A stretch of 64,000 bases of DNA, taken from assembly GCA_963793425.1 (NCBI GenBank), contig CAWCAG010000005.1, positions 2,080,001 to 2,144,000 of the forward strand, in the 5' to 3' direction. Source of the stretch: an uncultured cyanobacterium (GTDB lineage Bacteria; Cyanobacteriota; Cyanobacteriia; Cyanobacteriales; CAWCAG01). The position numbers were made by a program, and so were the translations under genes. Below the pieces are notes generated by a model. That model was not told the DNA's origin. It worked only from the letters and a program-made list of their open reading frames with translations, and did not search any database. Positions 21,265 to 56,900 of the stretch are shown here, in pieces (within the stretch, counting starts at the first letter, position 1; every line of letters begins with the position of its first letter).

Positions 21265-22608
21265 TTAACTCGCCGTTAAAGCCATCGCCCGTGCAGAAAA
21301 ATGTGCAGCATTGAGTGCCTCAACTGCTGCTTGATAATTTTCCACCCAATATTCTTGCCCCAAGCGAACGAATTGCCCTTCGGCGCGGGAACCAATAATG
21401 GCTACCACAGGAACTTTCCCTTGCTTTTTGTCATTTCTGGGGTTTAAAATGCCTTTTAACCTAACCTGCTCTGAAGGATCATTAGCTTGTTGAGGAGTTA
21501 GTTCTACCATAACCATATGTACTGTTTCTACTGGTTCCACTTCTTCGATAATTAGTTGCACCTTATCCTCTTGTTGATCAGCCCTTCCCCACATAATTAA
21601 GGGTTTATCTACTTCCAAGAAAGGAGAAACTTGTTCATAGGAACTAGGAAAAACCACCCCTTCAGCTTGACTAGAAATATCTTCTATTTGCACAAAGGCC
21701 ATAGGGTCGCCTTTTTTAGTAATAATATTTCTAATATCTGTCACTATAACGATGGTGCTAATTTTCTTTCTCTTTCCTTGTTCTGCTAATTGATTGAGGT
21801 TAATAGGAGAAAGGATTTTAGTAGCTTTTTGGGCAGACTTAAGGGGATGATCAGAAACATAGAAACCTAAAAGTTCTTTTTCTTGTTTAAGTTTCTCAGC
21901 AGGGGAAAAATCTTCTTTTCTGGGGGTTTGGGGAACAGAGTTTAAGCTAATCTCATTATCCTTTGTTGAATTGCTTTTAGGAGTCAAGGTATCAAAAAGA
22001 TTAAACTGCCCCATCTCCTTCTCTTTAGCACGACTCTGGGCCCAGCTTATCAAAGGATCGAGGTCATGGATAAGTTGGTTACGGTTCGGTTCAAGGCTAT
22101 CAAATGCCCCGCAATAAATTAAGGCTTCTAAGGCACGGCGGTTAACTACTCGTAAGTCTACCCTGGCACATAAATCAGCCAAACTGCGGAATGTTCCCTT
22201 CGCTTCTTTCCTCGCTTGTAATATTGCTTCAATAGCCCCTTGCCCTAAGTTTCTTACCGCCGACAAGCCAAAGAGAATCTTTTCAGCCACAGGGGTAAAA
22301 TCCACCTGAGAACGGTTAATATGGGGCGGTTCTACTTCAATCCCCATATTTTGGCAGGTAGCAATATATTTAACCACTTTATCCTGATTACCGCTACTTG
22401 AGGTTAAAAGAGCGGTCATATACTCAACAGGATAATTTGCTTTTAAATATGCCGTTTGGTAGGTGACATAAGCATAAGCGGTGGAGTGACTTTTGTTAAA
22501 ACAATTAGAAGCGACAGTACCATTAGCCAAAAGAAAATTATGATCCCTTTCTAAGCCAAGATCATAAACTGGTTCTTTCCCCAAAGGTTTACAACTAACA
22601 ATTTTCAT
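21265..22608 (-). CDS. dnaE: DNA polymerase III alpha C-terminal half with split-intein C fragment (DnaE-c)
   Basis: MKIVSCKPLGKEPVYDLGLERDHNFLLANGTVASN|CFNKSHSTAYAYVTYQTAYLKANYP; OB-fold region KKGDPMAF. Confidence 0.97.
   Translation of the reverse strand: MKIVSCKPLGKEPVYDLGLERDHNFLLANGTVASNCFNKSHSTAYAYVTYQTAYLKANYPVEYMTALLTSSSGNQDKVVKYIATCQNMGIEVEPPHINRSQVDFTPVAEKILFGLSAVRNLGQGAIEAILQARKEAKGTFRSLADLCARVDLRVVNRRALEALIYCGAFDSLEPNRNQLIHDLDPLISWAQSRAKEKEMGQFNLFDTLTPKSNSTKDNEISLNSVPQTPRKEDFSPAEKLKQEKELLGFYVSDHPLKSAQKATKILSPINLNQLAEQGKRKKISTIVIVTDIRNIITKKGDPMAFVQIEDISSQAEGVVFPSSYEQVSPFLEVDKPLIMWGRADQQEDKVQLIIEEVEPVETVHMVMVELTPQQANDPSEQVRLKGILNPRNDKKQGKVPVVAIIGSRAEGQFVRLGQEYWVENYQAAVEALNAAHFSARAMALTAS
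22504..22608 (-). other. DnaE split intein, IntC (35 aa)
   Basis: VYDL..ERDHNF.LANG..ASN followed by extein CFN. Confidence 0.95.
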
Positions 22609-22623
22609 CGTTCTCAACCCATC

Positions 22624-22740: not shown

Positions 22741-22813
22741 TGGAGCTAAGCGGATTCGAACCGCTGACCCCCTCAATGCCATTGAGGTGCTCTACCAACT
22801 GAGCTATAACCCC
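22741..22813 (-). tRNA. tRNA-Ala(GGC)
   Basis: GGGGTTATAGCTCAGTTGGTAGAGCACCTCAATGGCATTGAGGGGGTCAGCGGTTCGAATCCGCTTAGCTCCA; G3:U70; anticodon GGC. Confidence 0.97.
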
Positions 22814-27634: not shown

Positions 27635-27679
27635 CAGATCCGCAAGAAAGCAATTGACGACAAAACTTTAACTCAAAAG

Positions 27680-28156
27680 CTACTCTAACTTAGTGATCTC
27701 AACTGTAGAATCATCCTCTCTTTTGAAATTAAACACCTCAACTTCTGCATAGGTTTCTATCCATAACCTCGCTCCACCATACTTGGCTTTATCGTAGCTA
27801 TAGGTTAAACGACAGGGGCCATAGATATCTACTTCATGTCCATAATGATTAGCTTGGTTGTGCTTAACACTAATCACTGCCTCTAACTCTTCGAGCTTGG
27901 TCTTCTTCTTATTACGAGAGATTGCTCCTCCGTTAACATGAATAATCTTCACCGGACCAACACGAGGTTGACACCAACGAGGAGCGGGTCCTCTTGTACC
28001 ACGAGAAATCTTTGGTTTCCCTTTAAACAAAGGAATAGCCCAAACCTTACCAATCTTATAAGCCCCTTTAAAGCGGCGTTGTTGTAACAAATAGACAACT
28101 CGGCGAGGAGTTATCTTCAACATTGCGGCAGCTTTCCTGGTATCGATATATTGCAT
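27680..28156 (-). CDS. Helix-turn-helix (excisionase-like) DNA-binding protein
   Basis: TRKAAAMLKITPRRVVYLL.....GAYKIGKVWAIP; C-terminal IHVN...YGHEVDIYGPCRL...GARLWIET. Confidence 0.75.
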   Translation of the reverse strand: MQYIDTRKAAAMLKITPRRVVYLLQQRRFKGAYKIGKVWAIPLFKGKPKISRGTRGPAPRWCQPRVGPVKIIHVNGGAISRNKKKTKLEELEAVISVKHNQANHYGHEVDIYGPCRLTYSYDKAKYGGARLWIETYAEVEVFNFKREDDSTVEITKLE

Positions 28157-28286
28157 GAGAGGAAGAGTTGAAAAAACTATTCTGAGTTATGAATATATAA
28201 AGATGATAGCAAGCTTTGATTTGGTTTAATACCAAATCCAGCCCCTATACCCTTGCCTCTTACTGTTAAAATAAAAGAGATTATGG

Positions 28287-28359
28287 GGGGAATTAGCTCA
28301 GTTGGTAGAGTGCTGCGATCGCACCGCAGAGGTCAGGGGTTCGATTCCCCTATTCTCCA
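28287..28359 (+). tRNA. tRNA-Ala(CGC)
   Basis: GGGGAATTAGCTCAGTTGGTAGAGTGCTGCGATCGCACCGCAGAGGTCAGGGGTTCGATTCCCCTATTCTCCA; anticodon arm CTGCG-ATCGCAC-CGCAG. Confidence 0.96.
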
Positions 28360-28377
28360 TCTCGTTTATTGGTGGCT

Positions 28378-28773
28378 TCAAACAGGAAACCATTCTCGTA
28401 CCAGGGGTTCTCCGTCTGAGCTAGAAGCATCATCAATCCAGCTTAAACCCAGTTCCTTTTTCCCAGGAAGATGATATATGTCTGGTAAAGTAGCTTGAAA
28501 ATTTTTCTCATAGCGGCTTACCATAGTTTGCCAATACATAATAACTGCGGCTAATTCCCTCGCTTCTGGCTCTCTGCCAATTTTGTCTCCCATAAACGAC
28601 AAAGCTAACTTCTCAAACTTATTCTGATTGAAAGCTTCGTTTTCAATTTCTACTTGCTTAGGAATCTGAGGGGAAGAGGATTTTGCTGAGTCGTTGGGAA
28701 ACTGAGATAAATAGGAATCTTTTTGCTGGCTTGCTCTATTTGAAGATGATGGTCTATGAATTCTTTTTGGCAT
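28378..28773 (-). CDS. Hypothetical protein resembling the N-terminal leader of cyanobacterial eCIS-associated (DUF4157-type) proteins
   Basis: 131 aa; Ser/Gln-rich start then EIENEAFNQNKFE motif; family link is recollection only. Confidence 0.5.
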   Translation of the reverse strand: MPKRIHRPSSSNRASQQKDSYLSQFPNDSAKSSSPQIPKQVEIENEAFNQNKFEKLALSFMGDKIGREPEARELAAVIMYWQTMVSRYEKNFQATLPDIYHLPGKKELGLSWIDDASSSDGEPLVREWFPV

Positions 28774-29212
28774 CTTGCTACCTTACCACTTGTCTTAGTT
28801 ATGAGCATATACTCTCATTTTTCTTCTTGCTCCTCTCTATAAGTAGTAAGTCTACTACAGTTCTCTATTAGTGGTGAAGGAGAGACTTTCTCTGTGATTT
28901 AGAAGTTTTAAGAGCAGACAAAAAGATAATTGACTTGTCTTATTAAGCTCTTTCTCTAGTATTGGCCCGCTTATAAAGTGCGATCGCAGTTGATCCTGTT
29001 TTAATCCCATCAAAGAACTTCAAACAATAGCTGACTTTTTATCAGAACGTTTGTTCTAATTTTTTTCTGAAATTAAGCTTTTTCTTGATTTAGTCACCTT
29101 CTTTGCGGACATTTTCTAGCCAAATTTTAACTTCAGAAGGACTTTTGTCTAGCAAACTATTTGCAGAGCAATTCACGATTTATATTGCTTCACCTTCCGC
29201 TTTTCAAGAAAC

Positions 29213-29539
29213 TTATATTACTTCTAACTCAAAAGAAACGCTTTCAATGTCCCAGCTTATCCATGCCCAAGGTTGCTTTAGTACTCCTTCAATGACAAAT
29301 GCTTCTACATCTTCATTAGGTTCTATGAATGGCCCATCTATTACTTTGCGACCAGGTTTTCCCTTCTGTTTCCCTCCACTATCTATGTAATATTCATAAA
29401 TAAAACGCTCTGATTTTCTGACTCCTTGGAAAATTAACTTTCCTTTTGGCATAATCAAGGGCTTATCTTGATTGTTTAAAGGATGCTCTTCATATGTAAA
29501 GCTTACTTTTCTACAAGTAGATAGTTCATATATCTCCAT
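29213..29539 (-). CDS. Putative immunity-like protein, copy B (5'-truncated relative to copy A)
   Basis: YEEHPLNN...LIMPKGKLIF...VIEGVL.QPWAWISWDIESVSFELE, paralog of 32102-32497. Confidence 0.6.
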   Translation of the reverse strand: MEIYELSTCRKVSFTYEEHPLNNQDKPLIMPKGKLIFQGVRKSERFIYEYYIDSGGKQKGKPGRKVIDGPFIEPNEDVEAFVIEGVLKQPWAWISWDIESVSFELEVI

Positions 29540-29701
29540 AATTTAGGTTGCTTATTTATACACATCTGACTTAGAGCGATACCAGGGAGTGGGCTTCTCC
29601 TTCCACCAGACGCTACGCGTTTGCGCCAGCATTGTCGTAAGACTACGCCTACGCACTTCATGTAGTTCTCGTAAAATGCGATCGCACTAAAGCTAAGGGA
29701 G

Positions 29702-30337
29702 TTAAGTTAATCCAAGATTTTTGCTCAGGTTAGGCTCACTCACACGATAAACTGATTCTACTGGTGTGAGTAAATGTGACCGATTCCGAACTAAGCGATT
29801 TGGATATTGCTGATGCACAAACTCGGAGATATTTTGGATATCAACAATCCAATCTCGTGCATAATGAGATAAAAAACGACCCTGTAATCCCAACTGAATA
29901 GCACGTCGTTCTACCTTCATTTGACAGGGATCGTAATCAGGGTCCCATTGCAACCGAACCTGAGATCGCTTGACGGCTTGTTGCCATTCATCTTTACTAG
30001 AATAAAGTTTTGGTACATATTGGGAAGGGACAGCAGCAGCTAAAATCTTCTCAAAAGCTTTTCGTTTAAGCCAGATAGCTAGCACTACTTCTTGTCCTGG
30101 TTTTGTTCCCCATCCTGAGCGATACATCATCCAGAGGAAATTAGTTTTAATCCAACTCATGCGGTTAAAACTGAAGTCTCCGCCGAAATAACCATGTTCA
30201 GCAGCAAAGCCTCCGATAGCTGCATTGAAAGCTTGGTAGACTACAACAGTATTTTCGTCAAACTGAGCCATAATATGACGACCTGATGTAGGCCAACAAC
30301 TAATTTGCTTCAGATATAGTTCTGTCAATAGTTTCAT
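29702..30337 (-). CDS. DUF4291 family protein
   Basis: VVVYQAF, RMSWIKTNFLWMMYRSGWGTK.GQE.VLAI, VRLQWDPD, RRAIQLGL. Confidence 0.9.
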   Translation of the reverse strand: MKLLTELYLKQISCWPTSGRHIMAQFDENTVVVYQAFNAAIGGFAAEHGYFGGDFSFNRMSWIKTNFLWMMYRSGWGTKPGQEVVLAIWLKRKAFEKILAAAVPSQYVPKLYSSKDEWQQAVKRSQVRLQWDPDYDPCQMKVERRAIQLGLQGRFLSHYARDWIVDIQNISEFVHQQYPNRLVRNRSHLLTPVESVYRVSEPNLSKNLGLT

Positions 30338-30373
30338 CTCAAAGAAATACGACCTATTTTAAAATTATGCGGG

Positions 30374-31447
30374 CTATTCAACAAGACTAAATCCCACCAG
30401 AGCTTTAGATGTAGCTACTACTCCATTTCCATTAGAGCTGAAAACTGGAACTCCTACTCCTGTAGGAGGATCTGGTGTCCACTTGGCATAAGGTACAGTA
30501 GGATTTTTATACAAGAGGAGTTCGCCACTTTCACTATCATCATCGTCATTGTAAGTATAAGTCCCTACCCAGAGAGTTCCATCTGAATCTAAGGTAGCTT
30601 CAATCGCTCTTTGACCTTCAACTTTTGTGACAATCTCTGGACTTTCATTCTCTGTGAGACAAGCTATAAAGGTCTGATCTGAATCTAAAGGTGGCTCCCA
30701 AGGTGAAACGGTCGAACCAACAAGCCATATTCCACCTCTTGAAGCAGAAAGCAATTTTGCCCGCAACAGAGGTGGTAGCGGGTATTGTGCAACAACTGTA
30801 CCATCAATTGCTACTCTCGTGACAAAACAAGAATGCTCTGGTGTAACAGTGACAACGAGAAGTTCATTAGAGCAAAGTAAAGCTCCTGAAATGCAGCGAA
30901 AGCCATCTTTTTCAGCGTTTTTCCAGAGTACAATCTTGCCGGATCGGGCATTGAGACATACTAGACCCTGATCAGTAGCAGCCCAAAGATTTCCTTTTCC
31001 TGCCATTGTCAAAGGATGCCGCAACCCTTGGTCTCTAGCTACATACTGTGTGTAAGCAATATCACCATTAGGGTCAATTCGAGTAACAGCACATTCTGCT
31101 GCCCCCATGCCAAACCACAAATCGCCTGAACTGCTAACGAGTATTTCGGTACTAACGGATGTAGGTAAATTAGTTGTACGGATAATCTTACCTGCTTGAT
31201 CTATCAAATGGACTTTGTTATCGCTACTGGCACAAACAAGCCAATTATCTTTTAGGTGTACGGGTGAACCCCAAAAGCCATAGTCATGAGGACAACACCA
31301 GAGCAAATTTCCCTCAAAATCAAGCTTGACTAGATCAGTTCCGTTTAGCACGACAATTCCGTCGCAAAGCTTTAGAGGTAGAGATATGTGTTCGTGAATG
31401 AGATTATAGACTGGTGTTAATGGTAACGACCATCGTATAACAATCAC
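30374..31447 (-). CDS. Beta-propeller (PQQ-repeat-like) protein, candidate immunity
   Basis: Repeated beta-strand units (LVKLDFEGNLLW, VHLIDQAGKII, GDLWFG, GNLWAAT, GTLWVGT); overlaps the orphan toxin tip. Confidence 0.6.
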   Translation of the reverse strand: MIVIRWSLPLTPVYNLIHEHISLPLKLCDGIVVLNGTDLVKLDFEGNLLWCCPHDYGFWGSPVHLKDNWLVCASSDNKVHLIDQAGKIIRTTNLPTSVSTEILVSSSGDLWFGMGAAECAVTRIDPNGDIAYTQYVARDQGLRHPLTMAGKGNLWAATDQGLVCLNARSGKIVLWKNAEKDGFRCISGALLCSNELLVVTVTPEHSCFVTRVAIDGTVVAQYPLPPLLRAKLLSASRGGIWLVGSTVSPWEPPLDSDQTFIACLTENESPEIVTKVEGQRAIEATLDSDGTLWVGTYTYNDDDDSESGELLLYKNPTVPYAKWTPDPPTGVGVPVFSSNGNGVVATSKALVGFSLVE

Positions 31448-32062
31448 TGAACTGATAGACTCTATCTATTGAAAACACTCTAGTTTGCTCAGTACCAGAT
31501 ATAAAAACATCTCTAATAGTACCTCTACCCTCTGCAAAAATTGCTTCATATTCAGACTCAGACATACGGCGCACTAGCTCTCTACCACTAGCGATCCTCT
31601 CTTGAGCTTCCAAGTATTTTAGACGAACTCTCTCTGGCCAATTCTGCCACTGCTCACGAACAGCTTGGTTATTGACGTAGTTAGGAGGTGTATCTATATC
31701 CAGTTCTGTACGGGGTCTTTGATTGCTAGGATCTCTTCCTTGTCTTCCCCCCTCAATTCGCCTGGGCCCTTGGTTAATATCATCTACCTCCCCCGGTCGT
31801 ATACGACCTCCACCAGGGATAGCTAATTCACCATCTGGTCTTAATCGCTGTCCCAAAGCCTCCAACACTTGGTCTATCTGCCGCCTAATTTCGTTAAACG
31901 CTTCCTCCAGCATGGAACTGTTGTTCCTAACCTGCTCCAGTGCTTCCTGCAACTGCCGTTTCTGTGCCGCTATGGGGCCGATGCCTGGAATACTTTCTAC
32001 TAGATTTGGAAATACGATTTAATAAGTCATTCCACCCTTATGTGTCAATCTCTACCCAACTT
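31404..32062 (-). pseudogene. Orphan toxin C-terminal cassette with homology arm to the 33566-35713 protein
   Basis: No own start; 31855-31993 duplicates 33732-33870, then a different tip (GELAIPGG...ELVRRMSESEYEAIF...RVFSIDR). Confidence 0.75.
31855..31993. repeat. 139-bp direct repeat, copy 2 (copy 1 at 33732-33870)
   Basis: Hand alignment shows one mismatch (TTAAACG vs TTGAACG); degenerate similarity continues to ~32062/33938. Confidence 0.92.
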
Positions 32063-32101
32063 AGCAACTTCTCTCATCTTTATCTGTGATCGCACTCTGC
32101 T

Positions 32102-32497
32102 TTAGGTTATTTCTAGCTCAAAAGAAACGCATTCTATATCCCATCAAATCCAAGCGTAAGGATTTTCTAATACCCCTTCTAATACATACATTTCTACAGA
32201 GTTATTTTGCTCTAGAAAAGGACTGTCAACAATCTCATATCTTGGTTTACATTTTTCTTCTCCGTTTGAAGCTAAATAATACTTATATATTTTGCGTTTT
32301 GAGCTTACTACGCTTCTAAAAATTATCTTTCCAGAAGGAAGAATTAGAGGCGATTCAGAATTATTGAGGGGATGGTCTTCATAAACTTTAAAATTTTTGA
32401 CATCTATGGTGATTGTTTGCTCTCTAATCTGAGGGTTAGAGAAAAAAGCTGTATCCCAAAACTCTAGCTCGTCAAAGTAATTTTCAACGATTGTCAT
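32102..32497 (-). pseudogene. Putative immunity-like protein, copy A, with one in-frame TGA
   Basis: ...ENPYAWI*WDIECVSFELEIT*; the paralog reads WAWISWDIESVSFELEVI. Confidence 0.7.
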
Positions 32498-32591
32498 ATT
32501 CTTTAATGATCTTGAACATCTCCTACTGCGGAAAAGAAGTTAGGGTTCTACCGAAGTTAGCTTGTGCAAATATTTCGATGTAGATGCTTAA

Positions 32592-33005
32592 CTAAGTCCA
32601 ATTGTAGTCAACTCCAAGCTCCTCGATTTTCTGTCTAAGATACTTGAACTTTTGGTTAGAGCGAACCATTTTAGATACAGGATAATAAATAGCTTGAGGA
32701 AGAATTGTCAATATAGATTTAGCTCCTTTAGGATTGAGTGAGTGAACAATCATACGGCTATTTCTGTTACGAGAATCTTTAAGAGCTAAGGCTACATCTG
32801 CACCATTGAGTTCACCACCAATATTGTAATCAATTGAAATAATATCAAAATCATAAGCATTAATAAGTTTGATAGCACGATGTCCAGTCTTAACTAGAAT
32901 CCAGGCATGATTTCGATATAAAGAGGTTAGTATTTTCTGACGCTCTTGAGTGTCTTCGATTAGTAAAACTCTCAACAAAGATGGTTTTTCATCTTGACTA
33001 AACAT
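32592..33005 (-). CDS. Cyclic-phosphate-processing receiver-like domain protein
   Basis: VLLIEDTQER, IISIDYNIG, NGADV, IVHSLNPKG pattern typical of this stand-alone REC variant. Confidence 0.7.
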   Translation of the reverse strand: MFSQDEKPSLLRVLLIEDTQERQKILTSLYRNHAWILVKTGHRAIKLINAYDFDIISIDYNIGGELNGADVALALKDSRNRNSRMIVHSLNPKGAKSILTILPQAIYYPVSKMVRSNQKFKYLRQKIEELGVDYNWT

Positions 33006-33564
33006 AATCGCCGATTGCCACAGAAAAACAACTATTTACCTTTTTTCTCGGAACGTCTTTTTCTAAAAGTAAGTAGTCGCTATCTAAATCCTCGTGTAAA
33101 TAAATACAATAAAATAGTTCGTGATTATTAGATAGTAAATAAGAAATCGCTACTTCTTTAGCTTCTTCTGATTCAAATTCTTCTTTGAGAGTCCAAATGC
33201 GAATATCTCGACAAATAGTATTAAGACAGCTTTTGATCTCTTTTGAGACAAATTGCTCTTCTGAAAGAGGATGACATTTAGTAAAACCATCACTTGACAA
33301 TTCTTCGGGCAAAAGAATTATGGAAAGTTGTTCACTATAAACAGCTAGAGAGTGATTTAAGCCATCTTCAAAACACACTTGGACTGCCCCTGAATTATAA
33401 GAGAAAAATTGTTCTGCTGTCAGAGGATGATAATTCTTTAAAAAGGAAGAAATATCCATACCGAAGAAACGTTTTATTTCTAACAAACGCTTACCAATAG
33501 ACTTTTCCAAGTGTTTTTTATTGTTAGAAAGTATAAAATTCAATAATTCGGCATCAGTATACAT
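32998..33564 (-). CDS. Hypothetical acidic protein, candidate cognate immunity (188 aa)
   Basis: ATG at 33564 lies 1 nt after the toxin-like gene's stop (TAA-G-ATG); 3' end overlaps the next gene's start. Confidence 0.65.
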   Translation of the reverse strand: MYTDAELLNFILSNNKKHLEKSIGKRLLEIKRFFGMDISSFLKNYHPLTAEQFFSYNSGAVQVCFEDGLNHSLAVYSEQLSIILLPEELSSDGFTKCHPLSEEQFVSKEIKSCLNTICRDIRIWTLKEEFESEEAKEVAISYLLSNNHELFYCIYLHEDLDSDYLLLEKDVPRKKVNSCFSVAIGDYV

Positions 33565-33565
33565 C

Positions 33566-35713
33566 TTAGTTGCTACCTTGATTTTTCTCCCTAAGTATTT
33601 TCTTGAAGCGGTCAATAATATTTCTAACATCTCCTCTAGGCCCTCTTCCACGAGTAAAGCTGACTGGATCATTTACAAAAACGGCTCCATCAGGTGTCAC
33701 CAACTCCCCATCTGCCCCTAAGCGCCGCCCTAAAGCCTCCAACACTTGGTCTATCTGCCGCCTAATTTCGTTGAACGCTTCCTCCAGCATGGAACTGTTG
33801 TTCCTAACCTGCTCCAGTGCTTCCTGCAACTGCCGTTTCTGTGCCGCTATGGGGCCGATGCCTGGAATACGTTCGACTAGATCAGAAATACGCCCTAATA
33901 GTTTGTTCCACTCCTGTGTACCAAATTCTACCCAACTTCCCCAGTTTTGCTGCACAAAGCGGCGAAATTCAGCAACACCTCCTTCGGGTAATACTCTGCG
34001 AATCAGTCCCAGCAAATCATCAACTACTGCTAAGGCTTCATCTGTTCCCTTAAGCAAAACTTTGCTGATTCCTTTGACTGCACTACCAAAAGTAGGAATT
34101 AAACCAATAAGAGAAAAAGCTAGTCCAATCCATCGAAAAGTATTATTGTACTCTCCTTTAAACAGCATAAAGTAAAGGTGAGCAATTAAATCCCGACCAT
34201 CTGCTACCTGATCAAATCCTGGAATCAGTCCTATGGTCGTGTCGATAGCAATTGCTCCCAAACTTGGGTCACTGTTAAATTCTCCAAGCAAGCCACCGCC
34301 AATTGTATTAAGGATACTCCACAGTCTTTGTTGCCAAGTTTGCTCTTCCTCTTCCTCAGCTTGAGAGCGAGGTGTATTAATACCCATCAAACGCAAAGTT
34401 TCTTGAGTTACTTTGCCATCTACTGGTGTCCATCCCTTATGAGATTGCCAATAAGCTATACCTTGGACAGTCCTCGAATTAAAAATACCATCTTCATGTC
34501 TTAGCCGAACTACGCGCTGAATTTCTTGGATAATTGCTTTTTCGTATTTTTGGGATTCATTGTAGGCAATAGCTTCTGCCACTTGTATCTCTGTTAGTGG
34601 GCCTATATTATCTAGAGCAGTATTTATTCGTTCCTTTAACTCTTCAAAGCTCTTTAAAGTTAATTCATCCAACTGCTCCCAATGATTTCTTAGGGTTATT
34701 TCAATAGTTTCACGAGCCTCAATATACTTACCACGACGGAATAAATCCAAAGCTGTGCTATACAAAGCTATTGCATCGGAGCCATAGGTTTGTACAGACA
34801 GGTCGTAGTATCTCGAAGATTCTGCAATATTCCCCAGATGAAAATAAATCGTTGATATTTGAGATAAAAGATAAGCATACGCAGGACTACTTTCAGCCAT
34901 ATTCAAGGCTGCCTTATAGTGATTCATTGCTTCAGGAAGCCTGTTGTTTTCAAAGGCTTCATTACCCATACGGATACATGATTTAAGGTTATTACACTGA
35001 AGCGGTTGTTCTCTCTGCCCTTGAGATTGAAGCTGTTTTTCTCCCTGATTGTCTTGAGTTAAGTTGTTTGATTTCTGCTCAGAGGTAGTTGCGAGTGTTT
35101 TTGGCTCAGCTTGCTGTTTTCCGACTTCTTCTACTACTGATTTAGCTTGTACTTCTTGAGGTGCTGTTTGAGGATCATAAAGGTTATTGTCTACAGCTTG
35201 AAACCTATTATATGCCTCCCAGCCCTGTGCAGAAAAAGCTTGCTGGTTTTCCTGGTCTACTGCTACTGCGTTGTAATGCTTTTGTACCCAGTTGGGAGTT
35301 GCTGAAGAGATTATACTGAGGTCATTTTCTCCTGTGTTTGAAGAGTTACTATTACCGTCAGGAGTTTCCGGTATTGAGGGGGCGTTACTTTTCTGGGTTG
35401 CTTCTGTTTCTACACTATCGCTTTGTTGTTCATTCTCAACTCCTTCCTCTGCTGTTGATTGGCTGTCAAAAAGGTTGTTACCTACAGCTTGAAACCTCTG
35501 ATACGTTTCCCACTGTTGGGCTAACAAGGCTTGCTGGCGTTGCCGATGTGCTGCATTTCTTTTGCCTATATCCGTTTCCTCGAAGTTTTGCTCTTCTCCC
35601 TGTTGTTGCGGTGGAGGGAAGTCACCATTCGGTTTTAAGTCTGATTCGGGTGGGGGCTTAGAAGGTTGGAAAGTAGACTTTTTTTGGGGAGGTTCATAGC
35701 TAGCCATGAGCAA
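33566..35713 (-). CDS. Polymorphic-toxin-like protein: Q/S/E-rich leader, TPR, peptidoglycan-binding-like, FIX/pre-toxin-like region, short tip
   Basis: aa ~245-345 TPR-like; aa ~395-443 EIQR....DGIF...T..GI..WQ..KG....DGKV...TL; aa ~472-550 GEFNSDPS..DTTIGLIPGFDQVADGRD...IGLIPTFGSAVKG; ELVTPDG boundary. Confidence 0.7.
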   Translation of the reverse strand: MLMASYEPPQKKSTFQPSKPPPESDLKPNGDFPPPQQQGEEQNFEETDIGKRNAAHRQRQQALLAQQWETYQRFQAVGNNLFDSQSTAEEGVENEQQSDSVETEATQKSNAPSIPETPDGNSNSSNTGENDLSIISSATPNWVQKHYNAVAVDQENQQAFSAQGWEAYNRFQAVDNNLYDPQTAPQEVQAKSVVEEVGKQQAEPKTLATTSEQKSNNLTQDNQGEKQLQSQGQREQPLQCNNLKSCIRMGNEAFENNRLPEAMNHYKAALNMAESSPAYAYLLSQISTIYFHLGNIAESSRYYDLSVQTYGSDAIALYSTALDLFRRGKYIEARETIEITLRNHWEQLDELTLKSFEELKERINTALDNIGPLTEIQVAEAIAYNESQKYEKAIIQEIQRVVRLRHEDGIFNSRTVQGIAYWQSHKGWTPVDGKVTQETLRLMGINTPRSQAEEEEEQTWQQRLWSILNTIGGGLLGEFNSDPSLGAIAIDTTIGLIPGFDQVADGRDLIAHLYFMLFKGEYNNTFRWIGLAFSLIGLIPTFGSAVKGISKVLLKGTDEALAVVDDLLGLIRRVLPEGGVAEFRRFVQQNWGSWVEFGTQEWNKLLGRISDLVERIPGIGPIAAQKRQLQEALEQVRNNSSMLEEAFNEIRRQIDQVLEALGRRLGADGELVTPDGAVFVNDPVSFTRGRGPRGDVRNIIDRFKKILREKNQGSN

Positions 35714-35925
35714 TCCTGGGGAAATTTTGGGTAAGTTGAATCACTTAGTTTTTCGGACTTTGGGCTTAGGCAATTTCCCAATACTTTACAACTAAAATCT
35801 CAAGGCTATAAAAAAAGTAATGCTACTTTTAGCTATTACTTTTTCCTAATCAGAGTATTCTAAAATCTTAATGGTAGAGATAACCGTTAAAATCTTGCCC
35901 TGGTTCAGCAACGCCCTTAAAAGCT

Positions 35926-37959
35926 ATGGCTATTAACTCTTTTAATCATCAAAACACTTGGTACGAAGCTAACCATCAATATTTGATGCGTAGTATTGCT
36001 CAGATGCGGAAAATTGTAGAACAGCGTGTCAAGCAATTACAAAACCAAGTAGATTCAGCACCAGTAAAATTAGTTACTAAGCCGCCAGAATTCAACCTAT
36101 CACCTCCACCAGCCCTGGAACAACTCTGCCAATTATTTCACTTGTCCCCTTTTGAGCGGGATGTAATCTTGTTGTGTGTGGGGATGGAACTCGATGCTAC
36201 TTGGAGTTGGTTATGTTCTGCTGCTCAAGGAGAACCCCAGTATAACTATCCTACTTTTAATCTTGCTTTAGCTGTCTCTGCCCATGTTTCCTGGCGAGGT
36301 TTAACTCCTTCTACTCCTTTGCGTAGTTGGCATTTAGTCGAGATAGCTTCGGGCAAAAGTCTGACTTCTAGTTTAATTAAGATTGACGAGCGCATTTTAC
36401 ACTACCTTACGGGAGTACAATATCTTGACCAACGTTTAAAGGACATAAGCTTACCCCTCTCCCCCACAGATAGCCTCGTACCTTCCCATCAGAGGCTAGT
36501 AGAACAAATAACCAAAACTTGGTCACAAGGTTCAACTAGAAGTAATTGTCTCCCAGTTTTACAACTTTGCGGTGAAGACATATTTACTAAACAAGCGATC
36601 GCGGCTACTGCTTGCGCTCAAATGGGCATGACTTTACACAGCATTTCTGTAGAAGCCTTACCCACAGATCATCATCAACTAAGCTTAATTAAACGTCTCT
36701 GTGAGCGGGAATCAATTCTTACTGGTTGTGCTTGGGAATTAGAATTTGATGAATTGGTAAGTTTAGAGCCAGCTAAACAAGCTTCTTTAGAGCGTTTCAT
36801 TGATAATCTCCATGCTCCTTTAATGATGACAGCCCGCGATCGCCGTCGTCAAAGGAAGCGTCCGCTAATTACTTTCGATGTTTTCTCCCCCACGACAGAT
36901 GAACAACGTTTATTATGGGCAAATGCTTTGGGGACAAAAGTTTCCGAACTTAATGGACAAGTAGATATTCTCGTTTCTAACTTTAATCTTTCTGCCCCAG
37001 CCATTGAAGCTGCTTGCTTAAAAGCGAAAGGATTACAAACCCCCTTAACAAATGGCAATTCCCACTCCTTATACACTAGCCATTTATGGAATATCTGTCG
37101 CACCCAAGCCCGCCCTCGCCTTGATGAATTAGCCGAGAGAATTGAACTAGGTGCTAGTTGGGAAGATTTAATTTTGCCAGAAAAAGAGCGGGATGTGCTG
37201 CGGGATATTGAAGCCCATGTGAGGCAAAGGGCAAAAGTTTATGAACAGTGGGGTTTCGGTCGCAAAAGTAAGCGGGGACTTGGTATTAGTGCTATGTTCG
37301 CCGGGGAAAGCGGTACGGGTAAAACCCTTGCAGCAGAGGTGTTAGGCAATACCTTAAAGTTAGATGTTTATCGCATTGATTTAAGCTCGGTGGTGAGCAA
37401 ATATATTGGTGAAACCGAGAAAAATCTCCGCCGCTTGTTTGATGCAGCCGAAGGGGGCGGTGTTATTCTCCTCTTTGATGAAGCAGATGCCCTTTTTGGT
37501 AAGCGTTCTGAAGTTAAAGATAGCCATGATCGTCATGCCAACATTGAGGTTAGTTACCTTTTGCAACGTATGGAAGCCTACAGAGGTTTAGCAATTTTAA
37601 CTACTAACTTAAAAAGTTCCCTTGACCAAGCTTTTATGCGTCGCTTACGTTTTGTGGTGGATTTTCCTTTCCCCAATGCTAGCCAAAGAGCAGCAATTTG
37701 GCAGCGTATTTTTCCTCAAGATACTCCTACCAAAAATCTCAACTATCAAAAGTTAGCCAAACTTAGCGTACCAGGAGGTAATATTCGCAGTATGGCTTTG
37801 AATGCTGCTTTTTTAGCGGCTGATGCTGGGGAAGCGGTACAGATGAAACATATTTTACAAGCAGCCAAAAATGAGTACGTGAAAATGGAAAGACCTTTTA
37901 GTGATAGTGAGGTGAAAGATTGGTTAAATGAAGAAACCAACTACGATAATTTATTTTAA
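35926..37959 (+). CDS. AAA+ ATPase of the eCIS Afp15/Pvc15 type
   Basis: LEQLCQLFHLSPFERDVILLC N-domain, degenerate first AAA, GESGTGKT, IDLSSVVSKYIGETEKNL, LLFDEADALFGKRSEVKDSHDRHANIEVSYLLQRME. Confidence 0.88.
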   Translation: MAINSFNHQNTWYEANHQYLMRSIAQMRKIVEQRVKQLQNQVDSAPVKLVTKPPEFNLSPPPALEQLCQLFHLSPFERDVILLCVGMELDATWSWLCSAAQGEPQYNYPTFNLALAVSAHVSWRGLTPSTPLRSWHLVEIASGKSLTSSLIKIDERILHYLTGVQYLDQRLKDISLPLSPTDSLVPSHQRLVEQITKTWSQGSTRSNCLPVLQLCGEDIFTKQAIAATACAQMGMTLHSISVEALPTDHHQLSLIKRLCERESILTGCAWELEFDELVSLEPAKQASLERFIDNLHAPLMMTARDRRRQRKRPLITFDVFSPTTDEQRLLWANALGTKVSELNGQVDILVSNFNLSAPAIEAACLKAKGLQTPLTNGNSHSLYTSHLWNICRTQARPRLDELAERIELGASWEDLILPEKERDVLRDIEAHVRQRAKVYEQWGFGRKSKRGLGISAMFAGESGTGKTLAAEVLGNTLKLDVYRIDLSSVVSKYIGETEKNLRRLFDAAEGGGVILLFDEADALFGKRSEVKDSHDRHANIEVSYLLQRMEAYRGLAILTTNLKSSLDQAFMRRLRFVVDFPFPNASQRAAIWQRIFPQDTPTKNLNYQKLAKLSVPGGNIRSMALNAAFLAADAGEAVQMKHILQAAKNEYVKMERPFSDSEVKDWLNEETNYDNLF

Positions 37960-40425: not shown

Positions 40426-41280
40426 CTAAAGTTGATTTGGGTCTACACCTAGCTCTCGCAATTTTGCTGCTAATAGTTCGGCCCAATCTTTTTCTTTCTC
40501 AGCCAAAGCTTCTTGTTGTTCAGCCCTGGCTTTTTCTTGTTCGGCTCTAGCTTTTTCCTGCTCAGCCCTAGCGTTTTCTTGTTCAGCTCTAGCTTTTTCT
40601 TGTTGAGCTTGTTCGCTACTCCATAACAACATATTTCCTTGCCTATCCCACCATCTAAGCCAGTTGATGTTTTGCCCTAGTCTTTCTCCTCGCCATATCC
40701 CCAGGAATAGCTCTAACTCGGGTATCCACTGCCTTCGGTTTTCGTCTACTTCCTGGAGAGTGTATCGACCTTCAGACCAAGTTCGTACTTCTAAACTCCC
40801 GTCATGGGGGTCATAGGTTACATAGGTTGGAACCTGGAGAATATGCTCATAGAAGTACAGTTTCCCATAGGGGGGAGTCGAACGTATTGATAATTCTGCA
40901 CAATCAGTTTCTGAGAGAAACTCCATGACCACTGCTACTGACAAACCTTCTAAGTTAGGAGTATAACTACGACGAATGACTTCTGGTGCTACTGGGTTGA
41001 CTTGAGGAATATAAAACCAGTCTGGTGCTTTGACTACGGTTTTACCTCTAACTGTGGCTACTAAGCCGAAGTTTGAGCCAATGAGCATTTGAGGTTGAAT
41101 GCGCCCTGCTGCTCCTAAAGCGTCGGTTAGTGCCGCAGCTAAAGGGGGTTGTTGAATGTTTTCCACTGGTTCATCTGGTAATACGAAGTCTTCCGGGAGA
41201 GCTTCCCAGGTGACACTCAGTTGTTTTTTGCTTGGTTGAGCTGGTTGAGTTTTTTGGACTGGTTGAAGTTGTTGAACCAC
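40426..41280 (-). CDS. Uma2 family endonuclease with C-terminal AEQEKAR coiled-coil repeats
   Basis: LPDEPVENI.QP, KAPDWFY, VMEFLS, WLRWWD, LAAKLRELGVDP. Confidence 0.9.
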   Translation of the reverse strand: MVQQLQPVQKTQPAQPSKKQLSVTWEALPEDFVLPDEPVENIQQPPLAAALTDALGAAGRIQPQMLIGSNFGLVATVRGKTVVKAPDWFYIPQVNPVAPEVIRRSYTPNLEGLSVAVVMEFLSETDCAELSIRSTPPYGKLYFYEHILQVPTYVTYDPHDGSLEVRTWSEGRYTLQEVDENRRQWIPELELFLGIWRGERLGQNINWLRWWDRQGNMLLWSSEQAQQEKARAEQENARAEQEKARAEQEKARAEQQEALAEKEKDWAELLAAKLRELGVDPNQL

Positions 41281-43319: not shown

Positions 43320-44108
43320 ATGTCTTCCCAACTATTACTAGTCCAGTCAGTATTAGCCCAAACTCCTAGTGATCCTCAAGCCAGTCCTGCTACAGAAGGG
43401 GTTGCTTCGGGGGGCAAGCTTTGGATGTACTTAGCTTTGATTTTAGCGATCGCTATTGCAGGTTTAGCTGTTTATGGTTGGCAAGAAAAGAAGAAACTAG
43501 AGAAGGCACTTAAAGTTGAAAGATATAAAACGAAGGAATTACAAAGAAGGTTGAAGCTTTCTTTGAATACTATTCGCAAAATGGAAACTAACCCCGATTT
43601 GGTACACTCGCGGGAGTTTAATTTAGATTATTTAAGAATGCGGATGGATGAAGAGGTTTTCCACTACGCTATTGTTAATCAAATTAAAATTCGTGTTAAG
43701 CAAATAATTAGTGTTGCTTTGCGCCCCAATACTGCGGCTAATACTACTGTGGGGATTGCTAATAGTAGTGGGCGACAAATTGATGAAACTTTTGATATTG
43801 TTTACAACACTCAAACCAGGGCCGGTAAGCGAATTAAGGCAGTTCTTTTTCGTATTGAAGTTAAGTTGATTAAGCTTCCTACTCAATCTACTTCTAGTAC
43901 GATTAATCAAATTATTGAGTGTATTGAAACTTTTTTGAATCCTGATGAAGATGAGGATAATTGGCAAGCAAAAATTCAAGGTCGTATTGTGACAATGAGC
44001 TGGGATCAAAAAGCTAAGCCAACTCCTTTGTTAGTTTTAGAACAATCTCCTGAAGGAGAAAATGTGACTTTCCGCAGTAAGCGGATGGTGAATAAGAAAA
44101 AAAGATAA
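43320..44108 (+). CDS. Conserved-looking hypothetical membrane protein
   Basis: Single TM, coiled coil, NPDLVHSREFNLDYLRMRM. Confidence 0.75.
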   Translation: MSSQLLLVQSVLAQTPSDPQASPATEGVASGGKLWMYLALILAIAIAGLAVYGWQEKKKLEKALKVERYKTKELQRRLKLSLNTIRKMETNPDLVHSREFNLDYLRMRMDEEVFHYAIVNQIKIRVKQIISVALRPNTAANTTVGIANSSGRQIDETFDIVYNTQTRAGKRIKAVLFRIEVKLIKLPTQSTSSTINQIIECIETFLNPDEDEDNWQAKIQGRIVTMSWDQKAKPTPLLVLEQSPEGENVTFRSKRMVNKKKR

Positions 44109-44126
44109 CAGAGGTTGTCAATTCCT

Positions 44127-44760
44127 TCAATCTTTTTTGCCTCGCAGCCATTGGCGAAATTCCCTGATTAAAGCATTTTCTCCTATTTCTCCTCGTTTTT
44201 TCAGAAACCTTAAGATATCTAAATTCTGACAAAAGTGGTAAGACCTGAGAACGTTTCTGTTGCTGATAACTTCCCTGCTGTAAAACATAAATTAACAACT
44301 GAGAGCCATTAAATCGCCACACTTCCCTTACTCCAAGGATGGCATAAATGCTGAGACGGTCTAAGGAACTGCTGGTGACATCAATTTCAATGGCTAAATC
44401 CGGCGCTGGATCAATATTCAGGTCAAAATCTAACTTTCCCCGTATCGCCGCTTCATTGGTAATATAATAGCATTCATGCGGTTCAATACCACGTTGCAAA
44501 TCTTCCCGACTCCAGGTGGTTGAACCCAAACTATAAATCTCTAATCCTAATATTTCCGTTGTTGTTTCCACGATGCGCCCCAGAAATCGCTTGTTTACCT
44601 CGTGTTCAGGTAAAGGGGTCATAATTTCTAACAATCCTTGATTGTAGGTTAGTTTTTTACTAGGATTTTCTCCTAAATCTAAAGCTAAAGCTTGATAGGT
44701 TTCCCAACGTACTCCGGTTAATAAAGTGTAAGTTTCCTTTTGGGGTAAAGTTTGAATCAT
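44127..44760 (-). CDS. Uma2 family endonuclease; +1 frameshift near 44222
   Basis: VRWETY, LEIMTP.PEHE, PDLAIEIDVTS, GVREVWRF; true tail LDILRFLKKRGEIGENALIREFRQWL ends at 44127. Confidence 0.85.
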
Positions 44761-53936: not shown

Positions 53937-56900
53937 ATGGCCAAACTAGTAATCCTCGATTTTGAAGGTGACTTGCCTCAAGGTGTAGCAGTCACCATGG
54001 AAATTCGTGAGGATAATATTGGTGCTTTTAGTCAAATCCGGGCTAAGGGAAAGTTGCCCCCTGCCCCTTATTTAGCAGAGGAATATCAACATTGGCAGAG
54101 CCTGTATCGTAATTTGGCTTTCCTGTTTCGTTTAGAAGATCGTTCTTTGGGGGCAAACAATGGTTCCGATGGGGGAAGTGTTGAGGAATGTCGCCAAGCT
54201 GGAGAAATTTTAGCTAAAAGTCTCAATAATTGGTTGAAAAGCGACTCCTTTCGTCCGATTTGGGAAAAGTTATTAGAAAAGCTTCAAAGTCGGGAAATTA
54301 TTAGATTAATTTTACAGGTAGAATCTTTACCTTTGCGCCGCTTGCCTTGGCATCTGTGGGAGTTTTTCAACCGTTATCCTAAAGCAGAATTAGCCCTTAG
54401 CGCCCCAGCTTATGAACGGGCAGTAACCAGAAAACATCAGCGAGAACATAAACGTATTTTAGCAGTTTTCGGTAATTCTCAAGGCATTGATGTTGCAGCA
54501 GACCGCAAATTGTTAGCTAGTTTACCTGCGATCGCCGAGACAGTTTTTTTGCTGGAACCTCAACCCCAAGAGTTACATCATTGGTTATGGGATGAACAGG
54601 GTTGGGATCTACTTTTTTTTGCCGGACATAGTGGTAGTGATGGGGCAGGAAAAAAGGGGACAATTAAGCTTAATAGCCGGGATTATTTGAGTTTAGATCG
54701 CTTAAGTAATGGCTTGAAAACAGCTATTTCCAGGGGTTTACAGCTAGCCATTTTCAATTCCTGTGATGGCTTGGGTTTAGCAAAAGAGTTAGAGACTTTG
54801 CATATTCCTCAAATCATTGTCATGCGGGAACCTGTACCTGATGTGGTGGCACAGGAATTTTTGAAATACTTCCTGGCTGCTTTTGCGAAGGGCAATTCTT
54901 TATATTTAGCAGTCAGGGAAGGGAGAGAGAAGTTACAAAGTCTGGAAGAACAATGTCCTTGTGCCACTTGGTTACCAGTTATTTGCCAAAATCCGACGGT
55001 GGAACCTTTAGCTTGGCAGCCTCTTTCTGATGAGACAAGCATTCCCTGTCCCTATCTTGGTTTAGCCGCTTTTCGTGAACATGATGCAGACTATTTTTTT
55101 GGGCGAGATACTTTTACCAATAGATTATGGCAAGGTGTACACCAGAAACCTTTGGTAGCAGTAATTGGCCCTTCTGGTAGCGGTAAATCCTCGGTGGTTT
55201 TTGCCGGGTTGATTCCTCGCTTACGAAGTGAGGGAAATTGGTTAATTGTCGCTTTTCGCCCCGGCGATCGCCCTTTTATTAAATTAGCAGAACAACTCAT
55301 CCCTTTCCTAGAAACACAATTAAGAGAAACAGAACAGTTGATTGAAGTTGGTAAGCTGGCTACTGCTTTACAACAGGGAAACATAGAACTTACTACGGTA
55401 GTAGAACGTATTCTCTCTAAATATCCTCAAGCAGAAAAACTACTTTTAGTTGCAGATCAGTTTGAAGAAATTTACACCCTCGCCTCTCAAGGTGAACATC
55501 TGCAACCGGAGGTTGCTTCCTTAGATACTTTAGTTACTAGCTGCAAACCCCAAGGAAAGTTGACTTTGATCTTCACTCTCTGGGCTAATTTTTTTGAATA
55601 TGTCCTTTCTTATCGCCCCTTAGCAGAAGCTTTGTATAAATATAACCCTGAACTTCTCGGTCTCATGAACTGAGAGGAGTTGCAGGAAGCAGTGGAAAAG
55701 CCGGCTACGGAATTGGGGGTAACTATTGCCCCCGGTTTAACTAAGAGGATTTTAGATGGAGTGGGAGAAGAGCCAGGCAATCTACCCTTATTAGAATTTG
55801 CTCTCACTCTGCTTTGGGAGCGTCAAGAAGACCGTTGTTTAACCCATCAGGCTTATGGGGCTATTGGTGGGGTGGAACAGGCTTTAGCAAGCTATGCAGA
55901 GCAAATTTATAGCAACCTGAAACCTGAACACCAGCAACAAGCAGGAGAACTTTTTACTCAATTAGTGCGACCAGGGGAAGGAACTGCTGACACCCGCAGG
56001 GTGGCAACAGAAGCAGAAGTTGGTGAGGATTTATGGGTTTTGGTTAACCATTTGGCCCAGACTCGTTTGGTGGTGACAGGGCAAGATGAAGCCACAAAGA
56101 GCAAAACAGTGGAAATCGTCCACGAAGCTTTAATTCAAGAATGGCAAAGATTGCGGCAGTGGTTAGAAGAAAATCGTCACTTCCGTATTTGGCAAGAAAG
56201 ATTAAGAATGGCTTTGCAGCGTTGGGAAAGTAGCGATCACGAAGTTGGTTTTTTGTTGCAGGGTACACCATTATTAGAGGCGAAAAGTTGGTTGCAACAA
56301 AGGTCATCTAGCCTGAGTTACCAGGAACAAGAGTTGATTGTAGCTAGTTTAAATCAGCAGGAACAAGCCCAAAATCACTTAGAAAGCCGCCGTCGCCGTA
56401 CCACAGCCTTCCTCACTAGTGGTTTGGTGGGCGGTTTTTTATTAGCGGGGTTTGCTACTTTGCAGTGGCAACGGGCAGAAATGAATGAGGTAGTGGCGCA
56501 ACTTAATGCTGCTACGGCTTCAGTGGAAGCCCAATTTGCTTCTAACAAAGAGATTGAAGCCTTACTTGCTAGCTTGAAAGCAGCTAAGCAGTTGCAGCAA
56601 TCTAGGGGTACTCAACCTGATACAAAGATGCGTATTGTAGCCACCTTACAACAAGTTATTTATGGTATTCGGGAGTATAACATTTTAGAAGGTCATGAAC
56701 GCAGTGCTATTAGTGTTAGTTTTAGTCCTGACGGTAAGCTAATTGCTTCTGGTGGTGATGATGCAACCGTGAGAATTTGGCAGCGAGATGGTCGAGGAAT
56801 TGCTACTTTAAGAGGCCACGAAGATAGTATTAGGAGTGTAGCTTGGAGTCCTGATGGTAAGTGGCTGGCTTCTGGTAGCTATGACAAAATCATTCAACTT

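Follow-up and report, generated by a model that had tools for sequence, protein, structure and literature searches.

A probable satellite loader-and-cargo island of a contractile injection system, with apparently inactivated toxins, in an uncultured cyanobacterium

Polymorphic toxin loci of the Rhs, contact-dependent inhibition (CDI) and MAF types carry orphan C-terminal-immunity cassettes. In the contractile injection system (CIS) AlgoCIS, the N-terminal domains of the cargo are described, in the available part of a preprint, as disordered, needed for loading, and similar within but not between systems (bioRxiv 10.64898/2026.05.27.728243). Toxins associated with extracellular CIS (eCIS) consist of an N-terminal DUF4157 domain, a long linker and a C-terminal toxin, according to the available text of Geller et al. 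2021 (PMC8213781). For the thylakoid-anchored CIS of Anabaena, the accessible portion of the report proposes DUF4157 proteins as tube cargo and places the cargo genes in the CIS cluster (PMC8894136). Here, we describe a locus at positions 28378..37959 of a 64-kb stretch of DNA from an uncultured cyanobacterium (hereafter the window; C5:2080001-2144000 of genome G000), in which the gene of a CIS-type AAA+ ATPase is divergent from that of a 715-aa cargo-type protein and a train of smaller open reading frames (ORFs) follows the latter on the minus strand. Coordinates are those of the window unless a contig or locus is named. The locus is probably a satellite loader-and-cargo island of a CIS whose structural genes lie at three other loci of the same genome.

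Similarly to the Pvc15, Afp15 and Alg15 (Cis15) loaders, the window ATPase is a homologous AAA+ ATPase, with 49.6% identity in its AAA half (aa 392-664) to the relative at position 15 of a Serratia Afp-like cluster, between the tape measure and Pvc16 genes. By contrast to these loaders, it is not encoded within a CIS operon, the N-terminal halves are divergent, a role in loading would here follow by analogy, and the ATPase is one of at least four long paralogs in the genome, which occupy a cargo-like locus each. The cargo candidate of the window resembles PVC, Afp and AlgoCIS cargo in that its disordered N-terminus is similar to that of another cargo-type protein of the same genome; the same N-terminal pattern is reported, in the accessible parts of the sources, for Cgo1/2, Pdp1/Pnf and Mif1/Pne1 (bioRxiv 10.64898/2026.05.27.728243; PMC11495950). 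The DUF4157 architecture is shared by 55 of 88 scanned relatives of a helical module in the 715-aa protein, with the module lying within the 'linker'; unlike the DUF4157 toxins, the window protein has TPR and PG_binding_1 domains in place of eCIS_core and has lost its toxin. In the available part of Geller et al. 2021 (PMC8213781) there is no mention of the helical module, of a recombination arm or of an orphan cassette. With Rhs, CDI and MAF loci the locus shares a conserved body, a sharp junction to variable tips, a displaced 5'-truncated tip with its arm, and small downstream ORFs, yet the window protein is without YD/Rhs repeats, TPS/FHA or MafB domains (Pfam found no Rhs/YD, TPS/FHA-1, MafB, LXG or PT-TG family in it) and would be delivered by a contractile particle. 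Unlike in Anabaena, three separate loci share the structural genes, with loader and cargo encoded apart from them as satellites. The literature searched, which excluded supplements and most subscription papers, gave no account of detached modules of ATPase and cargo or of CIS orphan-tip arrays. Taken together, the ingredients are known (a CIS loader ATPase, DUF4157-type cargo and the logic of polymorphic toxins), and what is new here is the module family, the satellite organisation of loader and cargo, and the systematic decay of the toxins.

The ATPase is composed of an N-terminal winged-helix variant (PF22977, E 4e-19 by Pfam), a middle region and a C-terminal AAA domain (PF00004, E 5e-24), with intact Walker A (GESGTGKT) and Walker B (ILLFDE) motifs. 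It is 92% identical in amino acid sequence to its syntenic ortholog in G027, the genome of a sister species of the same genus, with a dN/dS of 0.085, and the gene is under purifying selection. Gene neighbourhoods were counted for the closest 80 of at least 580 relatives among the genome_contigs (44-59% identity, near full length). By this approach, sheath, tube, gp25, baseplate-J, VgrG or cap genes were detected by tblastn within 10 kb of the ATPase relative at 57 of the 80 loci. This count is a lower bound, since Pfam adds Pvc16_N directly upstream of the ATPase at three (L053, L055 and L061) of eight scanned loci that had shown no structural gene; by both methods, at least 60 of the 80 relatives stand beside CIS structural genes. 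An eCIS_core gene is present at 58 of the 80 loci, starts less than 700 nt downstream of the ATPase on the same strand in 40, and is divergent from it in two, both of Coleofasciculus. Full-length relatives were also found by tblastn in annotated CIS clusters on plasmids of Pseudanabaena (56% identity), Oscillatoria PCC 7112 (49%) and Deinococcus (36%), and the relative in a Halogeometricum CIS is divergent from a DUF4157 gene. A FastTree phylogeny of 96 rows places the window ATPase, together with its ortholog from G027, in a clade of cyanobacterial sequences (21 rows, support 98) that is itself nested among ATPases encoded within CIS clusters, and the window ATPase is set apart from five other AAA proteins of the same genome (support 98). 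Thus, on the genomic context of its relatives and on phylogeny, the ATPase belongs to the CIS (eCIS) ATPase family, in the Afp15/Pvc15/Cis15 position, a placement that an earlier reading of the window, made from sequence only, had proposed from signature motifs.

At the three Nostocales/Leptolyngbyaceae loci L053, L055 and L061, no structural gene other than Pvc16_N lies within 10 kb of the ATPase, and four cap proteins used as tblastn queries failed to detect this Pvc16_N; cap and ATPase genes seem to move as a pair. At L060:7818-9755 (Coleofasciculus), the divergent neighbour of the ATPase gene is an eCIS_core gene whose product includes an ATLF-like metalloprotease domain; at L097:7657-9741 (Roseofilum), it is an Ntox11 gene followed by an eCIS_core gene. 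Satellite ATPase designs thus recur in other cyanobacteria.

CIS structural families were absent from the 64-kb window by Pfam (15 + 48 window ORFs), and tblastn with 25 structural proteins gave no match there, its only matches being at C5:326-333 kb, C7:40-44 kb and C9:199-201 kb. The sequence-only reading had noted the absence of structural genes from the window, which both methods support for CIS families, and had placed the contractile particle elsewhere; the genome encodes tube, CIS_tube and VgrG proteins at C5:326-333 kb (1.75 Mb from the window), Pvc16_N, sheath and three tubes at C7:39-44 kb, and gp25, Baseplate_J and Tail_P2_I at C9:197-202 kb. The VgrG locus is immediately followed by an IS1 transposase fragment (C5:~334 kb, L020:17212-17706). 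An ATPase search of the genome found no copy beside any of the three structural loci. It found, in addition to the window ATPase, three long paralogs (48-53% identity), two broken copies and one small fragment. Most of the long or broken copies adjoin eCIS_core or toxin-family genes: one has an eCIS_core gene for a 673-aa protein directly downstream, one is divergent from a gene for a 1623-aa eCIS_core protein, and beside others are an Ntox16 protein with two DUF6714 ORFs, a TGL-like protein, and a 440-aa eCIS_core protein near IS605 OrfB. At C7:524-527 kb (L019), IS605 OrfB adjoins an ATPase copy that is split into two frames. The paralogs of this genome occupy three separate places in the cyanobacterial clade of the FastTree phylogeny, and other filamentous cyanobacteria likewise have 3-5 relatives.

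The 715-aa protein is divided into an N-terminal domain (aa 1-240), TPR (~245-336), PG_binding_1 (406-443), the helical module (455-680) and a tail (675-715), of which Pfam recognises TPR and PG_binding_1 only. Residues 1-240 are 72% disorder-promoting by composition. Over 210 aa, the N-terminal domain shares 37% identity (E 6e-20) with its counterpart in an eCIS_core protein encoded at C5:228814-230031. A short shared N-terminal motif, searched for as a regular expression, occurs only in two copies of the family of the 715-aa protein. No model in the Pfam copy used matches the module, which nevertheless has relatives in 652 cluster representatives at E<=1e-3 (316 at 1e-10). Architectures were scanned for 88 of the best 146 new matches, proteins of more than 1300 aa having been dropped and the total capped at 50,000 residues; in addition to the 55 with eCIS_core upstream of the module, two have TPR and 31 have neither. 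Among their C-termini are Ntox5 (2), Endonuclea_NS_2 (2), Tox-HNH-HHH, RNAse_A_bac and DUF2380, and a further relative, P0005, ends in Tox-REase-9. The C-termini of the relatives are thus variable, as the tip-swapping proposed in the sequence-only reading had implied. Of 201 genomes of the order, 8 have the module, this genome among them, and it was not found in G027 or in G059 of the same family. Based on its N-terminal homology, the fusion of its module family to eCIS_core and the adjacent CIS ATPase, the 715-aa protein looks like CIS cargo. The module family is newly recognised and, judged by these matches, is a conserved part of the 'linker' of DUF4157 toxins.

An AlphaFold2 (AF2) model of the module has ten helices (pLDDT 82.8, pTM 0.76), and one strongly hydrophobic 19-mer spans aa 528-546. 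Foldseek gave no match to the module fold in the PDB at E<=0.001, and a profile search against PDB sequences returned coiled-coil or designed-helix noise only. The best structural match of the model is Tse15 (Z 9.7 over 192 residues, rmsd 4.8; VIA wide), which falls below the noise bar of about 13 for helical models. In this effector of a type VI secretion system (T6SS), an Rhs protein, a helical 'clade domain' is N-terminal according to the available text (PDB 8uxt; PMC11461821), and both domains are helical and stand before the toxin in effectors of contractile systems. Without a sequence relation or a Foldseek match, this likeness may serve as a lead only.

The tips of the toxin family are joined to a conserved arm, and this arm is duplicated in the window, where the orphan cassette has ~255 nt of it. 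A repeat search aligned DNA 31808-32005 with 33685-33882 (91% identity over 198 nt) and 32009-32062 with 33885-33938 (74% over 54 nt), in agreement with the orphan tip and homology arm of the sequence-only reading; as protein, the arms of the orphan and the main gene are identical at 41 of 49 residues. The orphan cassette has in-frame stops upstream and no 5' part, an ORF being open only from a TTG at 31952. The family diverges after the arm '...EALG(R/Q)RL.PDGEL'. In P0002, an intact 514-aa protein from a cyanobacterial metagenome-assembled genome (84% identical), the arm is followed by a linker and a methyltransferase-like tip. The orphan shares the arm and linker of P0002 to about aa 80 and then has its own tip of ~100 aa, and in P0003 the tip after the arm is ~235 aa long. 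In the main gene, the arm joins directly to the last 41 residues of a P0003/P0009-type tip (83% identical to P0009), as would result, most simply, if the linker and the greater part of the domain had been deleted internally and in frame. Four different tips thus follow the same arm: those of the main gene, the orphan, P0002 with a third copy of this genome, and P0003. This third copy (C9:171.5-172.8 kb, L042:9565-10832) is essentially P0002 broken into frames of 156 and 230 aa, with a truncated tip and no small ORFs after it. Because none of the three family copies of the genome looks intact, the toxin arsenal appears to be inactivated while the loader persists. Four public runs, all of one study, were compared, one of which may be the source; contigs from runs X2-X4 span both deletion junctions (that of the main gene and that of a 131-aa ORF treated below) without differences, so the deletions are not errors of this assembly alone.

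The orphan tip had no relatives among 281 candidates at E<=1e-3, and its single-sequence AF2 model (pLDDT 49.1) was unusable. P0003 gave TPR matches only against PDB sequences, which leaves its ~235-aa tip without a name. A kinase-like character of the P0003 tip was a by-eye impression of motifs that no search backed, and a precomputed label, PF26324, could not be resolved in the Pfam copy used; neither was retained.

Comparison with the sister genome suggests that the slot between the ATPase and tRNA-Ala(CGC) turns over. In G027 the flanks and the ATPase are syntenic at 85-89% nucleotide identity, and a 448-aa gene is all that separates the ATPase from the tRNA. Window positions 28691-35887 have no counterpart there, and homology resumes at 35888; the 7.2-kb train is thus absent from the sister species, which has kept the ATPase. 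GC content is 0.34-0.36 at 32.0-33.5 kb and 28.5-29.5 kb versus ~0.42 around. The 131-aa ORF at the end of the train corresponds to the 448-aa gene minus residues 55-367, with the deletion junction at an 11-nt direct repeat, of which G027 has a copy at either site. Identity to the G027 protein is 100% for the last 81 residues of the ORF and only 51% for the first 54. Positions 28260-28624, which cover the tRNA and the last 81 codons, are 99% identical to G027 at the nucleotide and 100% at the amino acid level, which suggests a recent exchange or a chimeric gene at a tRNA hot spot. A likeness of the N-terminus of the 131-aa/G027 protein to eCIS_core N-terminal domains was weak (14-15%) and is not claimed. 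Across the tRNA, a 158-aa ORF (27680-28156, minus strand; weak HTH_17, E 0.0018) lies within a segment, 27638-28259, in place of which G027 has ~92 nt, and the ORF has no counterpart in that genome. One X4 contig runs from 28675 straight to 35888, shows variant letters at 35919-35937 and is weakly consistent with a co-occurring relative that lacks the train. Another X4 contig goes back by 742 (32479 to 31738, side 35). These contigs are possibly structural variants or a related strain in the same study.

Several results weigh against a functional loader-and-cargo pair. The 715-aa protein has no intact toxin tip, its tail being a 41-aa remnant of a ~235-aa domain, and neither the tips nor the small ORFs matched a known toxin or immunity family. 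No match to eCIS_core (PF13699) was detected in the 715-aa protein at E<=0.01. The module occurs at 0 of the 80 related ATPase loci and shares a contig with an ATPase, 15 kb apart, in one of five other module-bearing genomes. Nine eCIS_core genes were found in the genome, of which six are without an adjacent ATPase, so that pairing of loader and cargo is not one-to-one. The ATPase tree was built by FastTree only. Deletion here rather than insertion in relatives would be the direction of change by parsimony and the direct repeats, with no outgroup. Because the train is absent in G027 and the module is missing from all 80 ATPase loci, the adjacency of train and ATPase may be an accident, the train having arrived by insertion at the hot spot.

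These points lend themselves to an alternative that we consider unlikely overall, although it survives best among the rivals: the ATPase would serve cargo encoded elsewhere (the eCIS_core proteins), and the 715-aa gene, the orphan and the 131-aa ORF would be dead remnants accumulated at a tRNA-linked hot spot, functionally unconnected with the ATPase. The main tip reduced to 41 aa, the orphan without its 5' part, the 131-aa product of an internal deletion, the broken copy on C9, the absence of the train from G027 and of the module from ATPase loci and, weakly, the X4 contig that joins 28675 to 35888 would all be accounted for. By contrast, neither internal deletion shifts the reading frame, and the 715-aa ORF is uninterrupted from end to end; the N-terminal domain and the module are well conserved (84% to P0002); and other ATPase paralogs, as well as the Coleofasciculus and Roseofilum relatives, are also divergent from a toxin or eCIS_core gene.

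Improbable in our judgement is that the 715-aa protein is a periplasmic or cell-wall protein exported by another route, its family being stand-alone polymorphic toxins unrelated to CIS. PG_binding_1 together with TPR, the hydrophobic segment and the absence of eCIS_core from 33 of the 88 module relatives would fit such a protein; yet no signal peptide-like N-terminus is evident, the long polar region in that place is homologous to the N-terminal domain of an eCIS_core protein, the other 55 relatives are fused to eCIS_core, and no Rhs, TPS, LXG or PT-TG family was detected by Pfam. The least probable alternative is an intracellular NTP-dependent defence or conflict system (IetA/IteA-like or TRIP13-like AAA) that has no injection particle: PADLOC IetA models (E 4e-29) and NCBIfam IteA (NF042959) do match the AAA domain, and cREC and DUF4291, both encoded in the train, are discussed in NAD/ADP-ribose conflict contexts, but IteA reaches 89.7 bits versus a cut-off of 510, the matches cover the generic AAA domain only, as do the PDB matches (p97/CDC48, E 1e-25), the full-length relatives at 44-59% identity sit in CIS clusters, and no IetS-like protease partner was found among the neighbours by Pfam or PADLOC.

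The sequence-only reading had proposed a detached module that loads a tip-swappable toxin into a contractile particle encoded elsewhere. The ATPase family, the structural genes at other loci and the variation of tips in the family sustain the outline of this proposal, and none of the three observations that would have refuted it was made. Its working loader with a swappable toxin has to be revised, given the 41-aa remnant of the resident tip, the 5'-truncated orphan and the deleted 131-aa ORF, a decay that had been overlooked, and the pairing of this loader with this toxin is weakened by the missing train in the sister species and the lack of the module at related ATPase loci. The link to cargo, as judged from homology of the N-terminal domain and the module with eCIS_core proteins, is stronger than that reading could show.

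We thus favour a satellite loader-and-cargo island, which may work as follows. The ATPase would be the stable, selected part, and the neighbouring slot by tRNA-Ala the part that turns over. By homology with the loaders of PVC and AlgoCIS, the ATPase would be an unfoldase-like loader whose hexamer recognises the disordered N-terminus of the cargo and threads it into the tube; the particle would be built from the products of the three structural loci. The slot of the sister species would hold one 448-aa cargo-like gene, in place of which this genome would have a deleted remnant and a 7.2-kb, partly low-GC insertion. The insertion would bring a five-part cargo: a disordered, system-specific N-terminus, TPR, a peptidoglycan-binding domain, the helical pre-toxin module and a variable tip attached after the conserved coiled-coil arm and linker. 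The peptidoglycan-binding domain and the hydrophobic helical module may point to action in, or passage through, the target envelope before the tip acts. Recombination at the arm would exchange tips and leave displaced orphan tips and accessory genes downstream, and in this strain the toxic parts would have been removed with the loader kept under selection. Family memberships, synteny, the deletions, arm homology and tip variation are direct observations; loading by this ATPase, toxicity, the immunity roles and recombination as the means of tip-swapping are what we infer from them.

Features of the locus are presented in Table 1. The ATPase, the divergent 715-aa gene and the minus-strand train lie where the sequence-only reading had put them. 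Its gap of 212 bp between the divergent genes is correct when measured from a TTG start and becomes 218 bp from an ATG at 35707, the start shared with P0001 and with a paralogous N-terminus. The DUF4291 gene, the duplicated paralogs and the terminal tRNA-Ala(CGC) that it had listed are likewise present, and the train stops 18 nt short of the tRNA. Promoter and terminator scans of the locus gave no signal above that of shuffles.

Table 1. Features of the locus at 28378..37959 and the adjoining tRNA gene (window coordinates).
Feature	Position	Strand	Basis
CIS-type AAA+ ATPase, 677 aa	35926..37959	+	Pfam AAA and winged-helix domains, context of relatives, tree
Divergent intergenic region between ATPase and 715-aa genes	35714..35925	.	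ORF coordinates
715-aa cargo-type polymorphic toxin backbone	33566..35713	-	Pfam, N-terminal homology, module family, tail match
Predicted all-helical pre-toxin module, aa 455-680	33674..34351	-	Sequence family, AF2 model
Homology arm in full-length gene, coiled-coil end of module	33685..33938	-	DNA repeat D1/D3
224-aa ORF, candidate immunity gene of deleted tip by position only	32998..33672	-	ORF position
cREC_REC receiver-like protein, 137 aa	32592..33005	-	Pfam PF20274, E 2e-12
Small paralog A, 117 aa	32144..32497	-	54% identical to paralog B
Orphan C-terminal cassette: arm (31808-32062), conserved linker, ~100-aa unique tip	31404..32062	-	DNA repeats, alignment
Beta-propeller-like protein, 357 aa, candidate immunity gene by position only	30374..31447	-	Weak propeller Pfam matches
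DUF4291 protein, 211 aa	29702..30337	-	Pfam E 9e-63
Small paralog B, 108 aa	29213..29539	-	Paralogy with A
131-aa remnant of putative ancestral cargo gene	28378..28773	-	Comparison with 448-aa G027 gene
tRNA-Ala(CGC)	28287..28359	+	Flanking DNA on both sides differs from sister genome

The accessory ORFs of the train sit downstream of the tips. The 224-aa ORF is 188 aa long from an ATG at 33564, 1 nt past the stop of the 715-aa gene, and had two weak or fragmentary matches in 400 other cyanobacterial genomes; the beta-propeller-like ORF overlaps the end of the orphan by 44 nt. By position, the former is a candidate immunity gene of the deleted tip and the latter of the orphan tip, with no immunity family found in either. 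Family searches assigned no family to the 188-aa ORF, the propeller or paralogs A and B. The paralogs are 54% identical over 80 aa (E 3e-34), and DNA repeat D2 extends past the stop codon of paralog A. Atlas candidates for paralog B reached at most 0.88, with YxiG and DUF6258 at 0.84-0.85; all were below 0.9 and are leads only. The cREC_REC ORF overlaps the preceding 224-aa ORF by 8 nt. The cREC domain is predicted, in the available text, to process cyclic phosphate or cADPr (PMC7824862), and DUF4291, in the accessible part of another report, to have an atypical ADP-ribosyltransferase-like fold linked to Macro, NUDIX and Tpt1 neighbourhoods (PMC12522546). Each of the two may act as an immunity or repair enzyme, or else as an effector in its own right.

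Elsewhere in the window, three consecutive plus-strand ORFs at 53937-58024 encode CHAT with the first half of nSTAND1, the second half of nSTAND1 with WD40, and WD40, and look like one STAND NTPase conflict gene with frame breaks. An ORF with HHH_6 and an OB fold at 21265-22617, like the C-terminal part of DNA polymerase III alpha, adjoins tRNA-Ala(GGC) at 22741-22813 and may be part of a split DnaE. Three ORFs of the Uma2 family (putative restriction endonuclease-like) lie at 204-773, 40426-41280 and 44014-44760.

The selection and loading of cargo by contractile particles are only beginning to be understood, for Pvc15 and, in a 2026 preprint, for Alg15. This genome, in which at least four long loader paralogs have different cargo-type loci as neighbours, provides matched pairs for questions of specificity, and in the sister species the same loader faces different cargo. 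A wider reading, which we put forward tentatively, is that filamentous cyanobacteria run dispersed CIS with satellite pairs of loader paralog and cargo, in which the paralogs would set cargo specificity. One class of cargo would then be a true polymorphic toxin that exchanges its tips by recombination at the coiled-coil arm, its helical module would serve in delivery or docking, possibly much as the spike-binding clade domain of Tse15 does, and the in-frame loss of toxic cores in this genome would be selected detoxification, with the delivery scaffold kept. The module family, with its 652 representatives and with eCIS_core and varied nuclease or other tips among those scanned, links CIS cargo to the recombination logic of polymorphic toxins and points to a range of tips as antibacterial candidates, and the decay observed here is a caution against taking such loci for active weapons.

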